Positions 3,161-37,197 of a DNA stretch of 37,197 nt are shown here, one piece after another (within the stretch, counting starts at the first letter, position 1; each line of letters opens with the position of its first letter). Origin of the DNA: Dehalococcoidia bacterium. GTDB taxonomy: Bacteria; Chloroflexota; Dehalococcoidia; Bin125. The position numbers were made by a program, and so were the translations under genes. The DNA lies in contig RKRS01000234.1 of the NCBI GenBank assembly GCA_007571275.1, forward strand, positions 1-37,197, read 5' to 3'. A model generated the notes under the pieces. It was not told the origin of the DNA and did not search any database. It was given only the letters and a program-made list of their open reading frames with translations.

Positions 3161-4465
3161 ATGGTCGACAGCATCATGGTCGAACCCAGCGGTCCGTTGC
3201 GCGGCGTGCTGAAGGCGCCGGGCGACAAATCGATCTCGCATCGCGCTCTGATCTGCAACGCGCTCGCTCGGGGCGAGGCGCAGATCAGCGGATTGCTCGA
3301 CAGCGCTGACTGCCGTTCGACCATGTGCTGTTTGCGCCAGTGGGGCGTCGAGTTCGAGGAGAGCGGTGACCGCGTCGTAGTCCGAAGCCCGGGACAGAGC
3401 CAATTTCAACCGCCCAACGGAGTGCTCGATTGTGGCAACAGCGGCACCTCGATCCGGCTGCTCAGCGGAGTCGCGGCGGGCCTGCCCTTCCGTAACCAAT
3501 TCGATGGGGACGCATCGCTACGTAAGCGACCGATGCGTCGGGTGTTGGATCCTCTCTCGCGTATGGGGGCAAGAGTCAGCGACGCGGATACCGCGCCGTT
3601 CTGGGTGGATGGCTCCGCAGGAGCGCTGTCGGGATTTGATGGTGAGATTGCGGTCGCCAGCGCGCAGGTCAAGAGCGCCATCGTCTTTGCTGCGTTGCGA
3701 GCCGAGCAACCGAGCAGGATCGTTGAGCCGGGACCCTCACGTGATCACACAGAGCGAATGTTGATCGCAATGGGCGCGGATATCGAGGTTGGCGACGCGA
3801 CGATTCTGGTCCGTCCCGGCGCGGAGCTGGAACCACAGGATGTCGAGGTGCCCGGCGATGTGAGCGCCGCGGCGTTCTGGATGATTGCTGCCGCAATGAC
3901 TCCCGGCTCGGAGGTCGTGTTACCGAACGTGGGGGTGAATCCGCGGCGGACTGGTGTGATTGAGGTGCTACGAAGTATGGGGGCAACGATCGACACGACG
4001 AATCCTCGTGCAGTCTCGGGCGAGCCGGTCGCCGATGTCGTTGTTCATGGATCGCAATTGCACGGGACGATGATCAATGGCGACATGATCGTTCGTGCGA
4101 TTGATGAAATTCCCGCATTAGCGGTCGCCGCCGCTGTTTCGCAGGGCGTGACCGAGATTCGCGACGCCGCCGAATTGCGAGTCAAAGAGTCGGACCGGAT
4201 CGCGACGACGGCAGAGCTGTTGCGGGCGATGGGCGTCACGGTCAGTGAGCAGGACGACGGGATGCGGATCGTCGGTGGTGATCTGCGTGGCGGCACGGTT
4301 GACTCCCATGGCGACCATCGACTGGCGATGGCCGCGGCGGTCGCTGCCTTGGCTGCGGACCCGGAATCCGGCCCAACAATGATCCAGCACGCTGCCGCCG
4401 TCGACATTTCCTATCCCACCTTCTGGCGCGATCTGGATGCATTGCGACATGTCCCAGCTCTCTGA
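3161..4465 (+). CDS. aroA: 3-phosphoshikimate 1-carboxyvinyltransferase (EPSP synthase)
   Basis: LKAPGDKSISHRALI N-terminal signature, full-length similarity pattern, about 434 aa. ATG 3161 lies 5 nt after the tyrA stop. The track ORF start at 3101 overlaps tyrA. Confidence 0.9.
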   Translation: MVDSIMVEPSGPLRGVLKAPGDKSISHRALICNALARGEAQISGLLDSADCRSTMCCLRQWGVEFEESGDRVVVRSPGQSQFQPPNGVLDCGNSGTSIRLLSGVAAGLPFRNQFDGDASLRKRPMRRVLDPLSRMGARVSDADTAPFWVDGSAGALSGFDGEIAVASAQVKSAIVFAALRAEQPSRIVEPGPSRDHTERMLIAMGADIEVGDATILVRPGAELEPQDVEVPGDVSAAAFWMIAAAMTPGSEVVLPNVGVNPRRTGVIEVLRSMGATIDTTNPRAVSGEPVADVVVHGSQLHGTMINGDMIVRAIDEIPALAVAAAVSQGVTEIRDAAELRVKESDRIATTAELLRAMGVTVSEQDDGMRIVGGDLRGGTVDSHGDHRLAMAAAVAALAADPESGPTMIQHAAAVDISYPTFWRDLDALRHVPAL

Positions 4466-8118: not shown

Positions 8119-8914
8119 ATGGCGACTCACTCGGAACGACGCAACGCGGGTAGTGAGTTGTTGGCGGAGATGACCGGTCAGCCGCTCGGCTTCGCTTCGG
8201 CCGCCGAGCAGCGCACCGGCGCGTTCGGGAGCTACGTCGTCGATTACATCTTTGGCCAGGTATGGCAGGGCGCCGAGTTGTCGCGCCGTGACCGCACCAT
8301 CGTCGCGTTGTCGATGCTGGGCGCGCTCGAGCGTTTGCAAGCGGTCCAGTTCCATGCCAGTTTCGGGCCGGCCAACGGTGTTTCACGCGAAGAGATGGTG
8401 GAGATCGCGCTGCAGATCGCCGGGTACTCCGGCTTCCCCGCGGGCAACGAGATGGTCAACGTATTGATCACCATGTGGAGCGAGGCTGACGGCACGCCAT
8501 ACCGGATTCCGCCAGCCGCATACAAGGACGACGATCAGCGCCATCGCGATGCCGTCGACGTGATGCGCACGCTCAATGGGCAGGAAGAGGCGGCGGACCC
8601 CGCCGAAGCGTTGGCCGGGATGGAGCGGATCGGGCCGGTCGGCAAACTCGCGTTTGAGTTTGCCTTCGGTGATCTCTGGTCGCGGACGCAGCTTTCGCGC
8701 CGTGACCGATCGCTGGTCGTGGTCTCGATCCTGGTCGCGCTGACCAAGCCCGATGAGCTGCAGTTCCACATTCCCGGGGCGCTTAACCATGGCGTCACTG
8801 TGGAAGAACTCGAGGGAGTCATGGCGACCGCCGCGCCGTACTGCGGATTTCCGCGCGCGGTCGAGGGCTTCCGAACGCTACGCCGCATTCTGCGCGAACG
8901 GGAGGCTGCCAACG

Positions 8915-22075: not shown

Positions 22076-23623
22076 ATGAGCACGACTGACTCTGAAGCGA
22101 TATCTGAAATCGTTCAGCACGCAGAATCTTCGGTGGCGGAGAGTCGTCGACTACGCGAAATCATCGCCGAACGCCAGGCCAAAGCGGATTCACTGCGTGA
22201 GAGCGGCATCGATCCGTATCCCCAGCGCAGCGCTCGAACCCATACGCTCGGCGAGGCAATTGACCTCTTCACGGCTCACGAAGCAGAGTCGCCTGAGATG
22301 GACGGGCCGAGGGTCACGCTGGCCGGTCGGATCAGCGCCATGCGCAACATGGGTCGCATCGCGTTCCTCGATCTCGAGGACGACTCGGGCCAGATTCAGA
22401 TTCTTGCGAGTAAGCGTGCGCTCGGTGAATCCTGGGGGTTGTTGGACACGCTCGATCTTGGTGACTTCATTGAAGCCTCGGGGCCACTGATCCGTTCACG
22501 TCGGGGCGAAATCTCAATTCAATCCGATTCCGTGGTCATCCTCAGCAAAACCCTCCGGCCGCCTCCCGAGAAGTATCACGGCTTGCAGGATGTTGAGACC
22601 AGGTATCGGCAGCGGTATCTGGACCTGATCGCCAATGCTGAGGCGAAGGAAGTACTGCGTACGCGCTCTCGAATTGTCTCAGCGATGCGGCGGTTTATGG
22701 AAGAACGGGGCTTCATCGAGGTCGAGACGCCGGTTCTCCAACCGCAGGCGGGCGGCGCCGCGGCGCGACCGTTTCTGACACACCTGAATGCGCTGGACGA
22801 GCCTCGTCAGCTGCGCATCGCGCTGGAGCTGCATCTCAAGCGGCTGATCGTCGGTGGATTCGACAAGGTCTATGAGATCGGCCGGGTCTTTCGCAACGAA
22901 GGCGTCGGTAACCGTTGGAATCCCGAGTTCACCATGCTCGAGAGTTACGAGGCCTATACCGACTACCACGGCGTCGCCGAGATGGTTGAGGCCGCGCTTT
23001 CCCGGATTGCGACCGAAGTCATCGGCTCTACCCGCGTGCCCTGGGGCGAGGGCGAGATCGATTTCACCCCACCCTTTGCTCGCGTGACGATGCTGGACGC
23101 AGTCCATCAACACATCGGAGTTGACTTCCGCGATTATCCGACCGTCGAGGCGATGGAGGGTCTATTGCGCGATCACGGCGTGGCAATTCCTCCCGACGCC
23201 GGCTGGGGCAAGCTGTTTGATGAGCTCGTCTCAGAGCGGGTGGAGCCGCACTTACAGCAGCCGACCTTCCTGCTCGATTACCCGCTTGCCATCTCTCCGC
23301 TGGCCAAACGGACCGAGTATGACGACACGCTGGTCGAGCGCTTTGAGTTGTTCGTCGGCGGCTGGGAGCTCGCCAATGCCTACACCGAGCTCAACGATCC
23401 GGTCGATCAACGTCAACGCTTCGAAGCGCAGCTGCGTCTGAAAGAGGCTGGCGATGACGAAGCGGAGCTGCTCGATGAGGATTTCATCATCGCACTCGAG
23501 CACGGCATGCCGCCGACCGGCGGGCTCGGCATGGGGATGGATCGTCTGGCGATGCTGCTCACCAACTCTCAGTCGATCCGCGACGTGATCCTCTTCCCGC
23601 AAATGCGCCGGTTGTCTGTCTAG
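22076..23623 (+). CDS. lysS: Lysine--tRNA ligase, class II
   Basis: OB-fold N-domain (RVTLAGRI...GRIAFLDLED.SG.IQ), motif 2 (FRNEG...NPEFTMLE) and motif 3 (GGLGMGMDRLAMLL). Confidence 0.95.
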   Translation: MSTTDSEAISEIVQHAESSVAESRRLREIIAERQAKADSLRESGIDPYPQRSARTHTLGEAIDLFTAHEAESPEMDGPRVTLAGRISAMRNMGRIAFLDLEDDSGQIQILASKRALGESWGLLDTLDLGDFIEASGPLIRSRRGEISIQSDSVVILSKTLRPPPEKYHGLQDVETRYRQRYLDLIANAEAKEVLRTRSRIVSAMRRFMEERGFIEVETPVLQPQAGGAAARPFLTHLNALDEPRQLRIALELHLKRLIVGGFDKVYEIGRVFRNEGVGNRWNPEFTMLESYEAYTDYHGVAEMVEAALSRIATEVIGSTRVPWGEGEIDFTPPFARVTMLDAVHQHIGVDFRDYPTVEAMEGLLRDHGVAIPPDAGWGKLFDELVSERVEPHLQQPTFLLDYPLAISPLAKRTEYDDTLVERFELFVGGWELANAYTELNDPVDQRQRFEAQLRLKEAGDDEAELLDEDFIIALEHGMPPTGGLGMGMDRLAMLLTNSQSIRDVILFPQMRRLSV

Positions 23624-35934: not shown

Positions 35935-36867
35935 TTATGCGGGAACGATGCGGAACCATTTGCGACGTCCGACGCGCAACACTGATCCGCTCCGAATCTC
36001 GGCGCTGAGTTCTTTGACGACCGCGTCGTCGATGCGCACTGCGCCCTGCGTGACCAGACGTTTCGCTTCGGCACGGCTCGCGGCGGCGCCGATCTCGTGC
36101 AACAACACAGGTAGCGCCACCTCGATGGCGTCAGCGCCGCCAAAATCGAGCTCCGCCTCGGGAATCTCGTCCGGCGCGTTGCGCTGCGAGAAGGTACGCG
36201 TCCACTGCTCTTCGGCCGATTGTGCTGCCGCGTCGCCATGCCATTCGGCGACGATCGCTCGCGCGAGACGCCGTTTGGCGTCCATCGGCTTGACTGCTCC
36301 AGACTTGAGGTCAGCCTCGATCTGGTCAACCTCCGCATCGGCGAGATTGGTGCCGTAATCGAAGAAACGGACGATGGCGTCGTCCGGGATCGACATCGCC
36401 TTACCGTATTGCGCGTTGGCTGGTTCATCGATACCGATGTAGTTGCCGGTGCTCTTGGACATCCGTTGCTTACCGTCCGTGCCGACGAGGATGGGCGTCA
36501 GTACGGCGATCTGCGGCGGTTGTTCGCCACGCTCCTGGAGCGTGCGGCCGCACATGATGTTGAAAGTCTGGTCGGTGCCGCCCAACTGCACATCGGCTTC
36601 CAGCGCACCGCGCAGTTGCTGGGCAGCGCGGTCAAGCGCTTCCTCCGGTGTCTCCCTCACGTCGTTTGTCTGTTCCGGCGTTTCTCCCTGGTCGGGGGAC
36701 GGCGCCGGCACTTGCTTTTTCCATTCGGCGTAAGCCGGATACCCTCGAAGCACTTGCTTGTCGATGCGAGAGGGTGTCCGGGACAACAGGCGCTTACCTT
36801 CAGGCATCAGCCGATACACGCCGCGCTTTTCCTGTTGGACAACGGCATCCCGGCGGCCCACTTTCAT
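35935..36867 (-). pseudogene. Chimeric ORF: Mrr-type restriction-protein N-terminal (winged-helix tail plus linker) fragment fused in frame to the C-terminal half of tyrosine--tRNA ligase
   Basis: Residues ~94-310 read [12 protein letters not shown]...[14 protein letters not shown] (KMSKS) plus a C-terminal S4-like domain. This is TyrRS from just after the Rossmann N-half, so the HIGH region is absent. Residues 1-93 ([14 protein letters not shown]...[21 protein letters not shown]) match the end of the Mrr_N wHTH and its linker. Confidence 0.55.
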
Positions 36868-36940
36868 GCAGGCCTGCCACCGGAGACCAAGTATGTTGAA
36901 TTCTGAATTACGTGGCTCGTTGAACTGGGGCTAAGCCAAG

Positions 36941-37197
36941 CTAGTGGTCGGCGAACGGCACGACTTCGCCAATGCTGGGCGCGCGAAGCGCGATCATAGC
37001 CCGCCGGTCCAGGCCGATCGCGACGCCGGCGCAGTCGGGGAGGCCGTGTTGCATTGCGGCCAGCAGGCGCGCGTCCGGTTCCATTTCCGGCTTGCCGCGT
37101 TCGCGACGTTGCTGATTGTCGCGGCGCATGCGCTGGCGCAGCTCTTCTGAGTCGGTGAGTTCGTAGTAGCCGTTGGCCAGCTCCAGGCCGCCGGCCA
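36941..37197 (-). CDS. epmA: EF-P--(R)-beta-lysine ligase (EpmA/PoxA/GenX), 3' end. The gene continues beyond the window
   Basis: GLELANGYYELTDSEELRQRMRRDNQQRRERGKP...GLPDCAGVAIGLDRRAMIAL...VVPFADH*. This has class II motif 3 and the short EpmA-type C-terminus. The frame is open to the window edge. Confidence 0.75.
   Translation of the reverse strand, partial: AGGLELANGYYELTDSEELRQRMRRDNQQRRERGKPEMEPDARLLAAMQHGLPDCAGVAIGLDRRAMIALRAPSIGEVVPFADH

Follow-up and report, generated by a model that had tools for sequence, protein, structure and literature searches.

The 310-residue open reading frame (ORF) near the end of this contig, in which a piece of an Mrr-type restriction gene reads directly into the 3' part of a tyrosyl-tRNA synthetase (TyrRS) gene, is likely to be a chimeric contig end arising from assembly or from library preparation. 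Comparison with related sequences indicates that the organism very probably has no such gene; almost certainly it carries a single intact tyrS, divided in two by the assembly. The window, that is, the whole stretch of 37,197 nucleotides analysed here, comprises contig C252 in full. The bin to which it belongs (G000) is fragmented, with 287 contigs, 2.47 Mb of sequence and 88% completeness, and holds no contig below 2.5 kb, the smallest being 2515 nt. A first-pass annotation of the window had offered a decayed defence gene, an assembly chimera and a repurposed RNA-binding module as explanations; the chimera is the one of the three favoured here, given a complementary tyrS piece on a second contig (C108), a foreign tail and sharp breakpoints.

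The ORF is present as that annotation described it, with part of an Mrr-type gene running in frame into a tyrS that lacks its 5' portion, beside the end of an epmA gene. It occupies 35935-36867 on the minus strand, with its ATG at 36867 and its stop at 35935-35937. Upstream of the ATG the frame stays open to a TAG at 36931-36933, 7 nt past the epmA-like stop at 36941-36943, and the earlier placement of the frame's upstream stop next to the epmA stop is thereby confirmed. The contig end falls into three blocks: tyrS up to 36606, an Mrr island of 238 nt, and a final 372 nt comprising a spacer of 115 nt and the epmA-like end (Table 1). The join between the Mrr and tyrS blocks lies 590 nt inside the end of C252.

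Table 1. Features at the right-hand end of the window.
Feature	Coordinates	Strand	Basis
Native tyrS 3' part, to its stop, with RMSKS and S4-like domain	35935..36606	-	TIGR00234, Pfam, genus identity, downstream synteny
Junction 1, 19 nt, GCGCTGGAAGCCGATGTGC, ALEADV codons plus 1 nt	36588..36606	-	Fits both the Mrr and the tyrS parent
Mrr-type fragment, final Mrr_N winged-helix strand (RGVYRL...) and acidic linker	36588..36825	-	Amino acid and blastn homology
115-nt spacer with the ORF ATG (36867-36865) and in-frame TAG (36933-36931)	36826..36940	-	Random-level identity to Mrr
EpmA/GenX-like 3' end, 84 codons plus stop, leaving the contig end	36941..37197	-	TIGR00462 positions 225-304

The larger part of the ORF is TyrRS. 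In a profile search, residues 88-307 match TIGR00234 positions 183-403 of 406 (E 3e-41); at 141.9 bits the match clears the cut-off of 113.8, and because the match is partial the ORF represents a fragment. Pfam tRNA-synt_1b (PF00579) matches at model positions 148-291 of 292, and the S4 domain (PF01479) matches residues 252-296 (E 9.2e-8). An RMSKS loop of the KMSKS type is present and the HIGH signature is absent from the ORF, the LHIGH being carried by a 148-aa piece on C108. Motif check and Pfam therefore agree with the original observation that the HIGH half of TyrRS is missing while RMSKS and an S4-like domain are kept. The TyrRS part shares 76-86% amino acid identity with intact tyrS genes of the same genus, and the downstream genes are syntenic. 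To the left of 36606 the window shows 76-95% amino acid identity to same-genus genomes; at 36606 this homology ends in tblastx comparisons with the relatives.

The missing half of the gene resides in the same bin. A family search places it at C108:1-354, where it matches TIGR00234 positions 15-133 and runs off the contig end. This piece forms an ORF of 148 aa, has a proper start and follows directly upon a ribF-like gene; the latter (316 aa, within the C108:1-1397 region) stops 2 nt ahead of the tyrS start, in the arrangement TAG CC ATG. The order ribF, tyrS, MBL hydrolase is kept in the two same-genus genomes inspected. The bin holds a third tyrS-family match, a weak paralogue on C109 that scores 24 bits and falls under the cut-off. 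The earlier expectation of a second tyrS elsewhere is thus not borne out, since a search of the bin finds no second copy.

To examine collinearity, C108 and the window were compared by tblastx with 18-kb regions of two complete same-genus genomes (G017 and G003). In L017 coordinates, base 1 of C108 falls at 8451 and window position 36606/36607 at 8599; in L018 coordinates, the corresponding values are 8900 and 9048. The gap between C108 and the window is exactly 147 nt (49 codons) in both relatives, and the flanking genes are collinear. A protein alignment shows the two tyrS pieces to be complementary, and their divergence from G017 is similar, at 84% and 86% identity. Eight same-genus genomes were tested, and each has a single intact tyrS, in an open frame of between 422 and 588 aa. 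It is this combination, two pieces that are complementary, collinear and equally diverged together with relatives that are single-copy, which points to one intact tyrS in the organism. Native tyrS sequence displaced from the junction thus lies elsewhere in the assembly, and synteny with G017 and G003 is restored, with the 147-nt gap, when C108 and C252 are taken together. The idea that led the first-pass annotation, a decaying defence gene that deleted part of tyrS, is not supported: the N-terminal half closes contig C108, which in the relatives is collinear with the window.

In a large protein collection, the N-terminal part of the ORF shares 45-66% amino acid identity with proteins of ~309 aa that combine Mrr_N, PF22722 and Mrr_cat. 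Pfam yields no match in residues 1-114 of the extended frame at E<=1, and the Mrr_N model does not score. Of the two ORF parts for which separate searches had been suggested, the TyrRS part is recovered with both TIGR00234 and Pfam; the N-terminus, missed by Pfam, is recognized through its protein homologues. The original Mrr assignment holds for residues 15-93, which are homologous at the identity given above, but not for the residues encoded outside the 238-nt island. What is retained is just the last ~15 residues of the Mrr_N domain, ahead of the linker, with the first ~75 codons gone. Mrr_cat is absent, in keeping with the earlier statement that the endonuclease domain is missing: the Mrr alignment stops after ALEADV, where TyrRS begins.

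Closer examination of the DNA locates the limits of the island. Mrr loci matching it in full do so with 65-76% blastn identity, from 36825-36826 (36828 in one case) down to 36588. Read in register, the 30 nt just within the island show an identity of 0.80 to Mrr genes, and the successive 30-nt bins beyond it 0.35, 0.26 and 0.23; natural Mrr genes share 0.65-0.84 DNA identity among themselves over that stretch (22 loci, 30-nt bins). On these comparisons, the edges of the island are abrupt on both sides. The 115 nt upstream of 36825 were considered as a diverged Mrr_N sequence and rejected, their identity being at random level where the natural genes are conserved. At the protein level, this spacer shows only a weak resemblance, and it has no Pfam match.

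The best matches of the Mrr fragment are Mrr genes in metagenome-assembled genomes (MAGs) of other phyla, for example Alphaproteobacteria and Bryobacterales; among 24 genomes of the genus, there is one weak match (34%). The ~309-aa Mrr protein occurs at 68 loci (L028-L095, each matching at ~4001-4290) and is tightly conserved across MAGs of many phyla, with hosts in the Alphaproteobacteria, Gammaproteobacteria, Bryobacterales, Binatia, Nitrospirales, Gemmatimonadetes, Rhodothermales and Poriferihabitaceae. Several of these MAGs have sponge-type isolate names. The distribution suggests that the family may have spread horizontally, recently and within one habitat. The bin itself contains three other open frames with Mrr_N (C237:1065-1304, C192:366-587 and C260:1420-1677; L004-L006) of 458, 221 and 355 aa, respectively, and restriction-type genes seem frequent in this genome. 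These three genes, unrelated in sequence to the fragment in the window, were considered as the source of the island and set aside, as a tblastn search with the ORF recovers no match to any of the three.

The TyrRS and Mrr homologies overlap at the 19-nt junction, Mrr reaching down to 36588 and TyrRS beginning at 36606. The exact 19-mer occurs in one natural Mrr gene (L056), with near-identical forms in other Mrr genes; same-genus tyrS genes carry it with two to three mismatches, as third-position differences. In the bin, the 19-mer is unique. A search of the genus with a pattern allowing three mismatches was noisy and is informative at tyrS sites only. The first-pass annotation had recognized that a motif is common to both parents, but underestimated its length: the shared element is ALEADV (6 codons, 19 nt), not A-D-V. 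Nineteen shared nucleotides are certain, and a twentieth would be added if the lost preceding tyrS codon ends in T. Because both parents read the ALEADV codons in the same frame, a crossover within them yields an in-frame fusion automatically, and the open frame of the fusion is therefore no evidence of selection.

This last point weighs on the reading of the ORF as a functional new protein, in which the anticodon-binding and S4 RNA-binding modules of TyrRS were placed under a new N-terminus. The frame does offer 310 open codons with an ATG, and its S4 and alpha-helical anticodon-binding parts are intact. However, the TyrRS part begins inside the Rossmann fold, at Pfam position 148 of 292, the Mrr part amounts to the last winged-helix strand and its linker, and the open frame comes free with the shared codons. 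Moreover, no protein sharing the Mrr-TyrRS architecture is found among ~15 billion proteins, where the fusion is a singleton from one contig. For a singleton with both parts cut within domains, a working product of this kind, including the repurposed RNA-binding module proposed earlier, is extremely unlikely.

Beyond the spacer, codons 36944-37195 of the epmA-like tail correspond to TIGR00462 positions 225-304; the score of 99.3 bits is below the cut-off of 286.9, the gene being cut by the contig end. The tail shares 69-79% identity with 280-aa PF00152 proteins, of which the four named ones all come from Gammaproteobacteria MAGs. Its identity within the genus is 35-42%, to LysRS-length frames (5 genomes), and within the class it reaches at most 49%, mostly to LysRS-length frames (200 genomes). 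The bin lacks the remaining 220 codons of the epmA-like gene. Taxonomic affinity thus differs between the two sides of the junction, with genus matches to the left and matches in Gammaproteobacteria and other phyla to the right. Base composition does not discriminate the 590-nt tail (GC 0.64 against 0.63 for the genome, with 37% of 590-nt windows at or above the tail). In the donor, the 115-nt spacer probably flanked the epmA-like gene on its 3' side. Natural Mrr loci have no epmA-like sequence within 4 kb (0 of 68); one Pseudomonadales MAG holds both epmA-like and mrr genes, ~215 kb apart. Neither among the 68 Mrr loci nor in the Pseudomonadales MAG did we find a donor with an Mrr remnant after epmA. 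Exact-word scans of JGI metagenome contigs with an Mrr-linker 26-mer and a conserved-tyrS 35-mer give no match.

Two side observations concern this family. First, the closest relatives of the tail (P0024-P0054) are uniformly ~280-284 aa and carry PF00152 only, and the named EpmA/GenX proteins further down the list are 310-345 aa; judging by these lengths, Gammaproteobacteria MAGs may contain an EpmA-like subfamily of short proteins. Second, the window encodes a full-length lysS (515-aa ORF, 22076-23623), which besides the epmA-like tail is the sole match to class II Lys-type synthetases on C252; when genomes of the relatives are queried with the epmA-like tail, the matches returned are lysS.

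The location of native and foreign sequence around the join also allows for an integrated element that targets tyrS and brings its own replacement 3' half, the Mrr and epmA sequences being island cargo and the native 3' half a leftover at the far end. In agreement with such an element, the native tyrS 3' half sits beside its native downstream genes with foreign DNA upstream; moreover, islands often fail to bin, and a bin that is 88% complete could hide a second C-terminal half. The bin, however, shows neither a second TyrRS C-terminal half nor an integrase beside the join, and the crossover falls in ordinary conserved Mrr coding sequence that does not resemble an attachment site. A cargo that includes 223 codons of the target gene would be unusual, and none of the 24 genomes of the genus has the arrangement. 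We consider an integrated element very unlikely.

Somewhat more plausible, although still unlikely, is that the genome itself was rearranged, in the cell or in a fraction of the population, an epmA end and an Mrr remnant having recombined into tyrS at the ALEADV 19-mer. The C108 reads would then come from cells whose allele is intact, and the ORF would be a dead Mrr-TyrRS pseudogene. The join does lie on 19 nt of microhomology, as used by illegitimate recombination; the Mrr family, present in MAGs of many phyla with several sponge-type names, seems horizontally mobile; and the Mrr piece is cut on both sides in the manner of a decayed gene. Against this stands the single-copy state of tyrS in all eight relatives, with no second copy in the bin, so that a disrupted tyrS should be lethal. 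The N-terminal half is moreover present, equally diverged and collinear, the junction falls where its contig ends, and this contig alone encodes the protein. On balance, we regard as improbable a sponge-associated Dehalococcoidia strain that bears a genuine in-frame Mrr-TyrRS hybrid, built from gammaproteobacterial and Mrr-family DNA, beside an intact allele.

A chimeric contig end remains the favoured reading, and the following course of events would account for it. The true locus would read ribF, one intact tyrS, MBL-fold hydrolase. The assembly would have broken within tyrS, leaving 148 codons at the end of C108 and losing 49 codons (147 nt), and the remaining 223 tyrS codons on C252 would have been joined to ~590 nt from other community members, namely 238 nt out of an Mrr-type restriction gene and an epmA-like 3' end of gammaproteobacterial type. 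The crossing would have taken place at the 19-nt ALEADV word, either in a small-k de Bruijn graph or by template switching in library preparation. The short true continuation of tyrS would then have been dropped, the bin being devoid of contigs below 2.5 kb. We infer that the crossing occurred in silico or in vitro, and not in the cell.

Several features of the sequence count against this account. The smallest k in common use is 21, and the 19 nt (possibly 20) shared by the two parents stand at or just under that value; a purely graph-based join is therefore not guaranteed, and the route to the artefact is one that we infer. The tail contains two breakpoints within 610 nt, so that spurious joining would have had to occur twice, unless an Mrr remnant already lay beside epmA in the donor; the second breakpoint may be a further artefact or go back to an old deletion in that donor. 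Finally, C108 terminates 147 nt before the join and not at the join itself. A search for repeats of at least 16 nt elsewhere in the bin that would account for the contig ends or the junctions yielded none, its output being mostly noise.

These results have practical consequences. The 310-aa "protein" in the public database is unfit as evidence that this lineage has a fragmentary TyrRS, an Mrr fusion or an epmA gene, and the tyrS of the bin should be regarded as split across two contigs, not as missing. The case shows that unrelated genes with six identically coded residues can yield a seamless in-frame chimera. On CAMI data, 69% of the near-complete MAGs built with MEGAHIT are reported to contain interspecies chimeric contigs, and misassembly-correction tools ignore the last 1 kb at contig ends (bioRxiv 10.64898/2026.10.15.759294), the zone in which the probable chimera described here lies. 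Were the junction real, it would be a modest curiosity in illegitimate recombination and would show a microhomology-mediated gene disruption by foreign defence-gene DNA caught in the act.

Comparison with known systems places each segment of the ORF and its surroundings. Relative to bacterial TyrRS (TIGR00234; PF00579 and PF01479), residues 88-310 are the genuine C-terminal 223 residues, including the anticodon-binding helices, and the ORF lacks model positions 1-182, which contain HIGH and the tyrosine pocket. Relative to Mrr-type restriction proteins (PF14338, PF22722 and PF04471; ~309 aa), residues 15-93 align through ...LRGALEADV, in a fragment without the first ~75 residues and the entire nuclease domain. 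The last 84 codons of the tail are up to 79% identical to the 280-aa form of EpmA/GenX (EF-P lysine aminoacylase, TIGR00462), of which the 3' end alone is found here and for which the genus of the window has no counterpart. The contig end as a whole is most similar to the interspecies chimeric contigs known from MAG misassembly. It differs from these in its two breakpoints within 610 nt, and in that the chimera is here proposed from sequence comparison; it shares with them the abrupt change in affinity, the break near a contig end at a short shared sequence, and the complement of the broken gene at the end of another contig in the bin.
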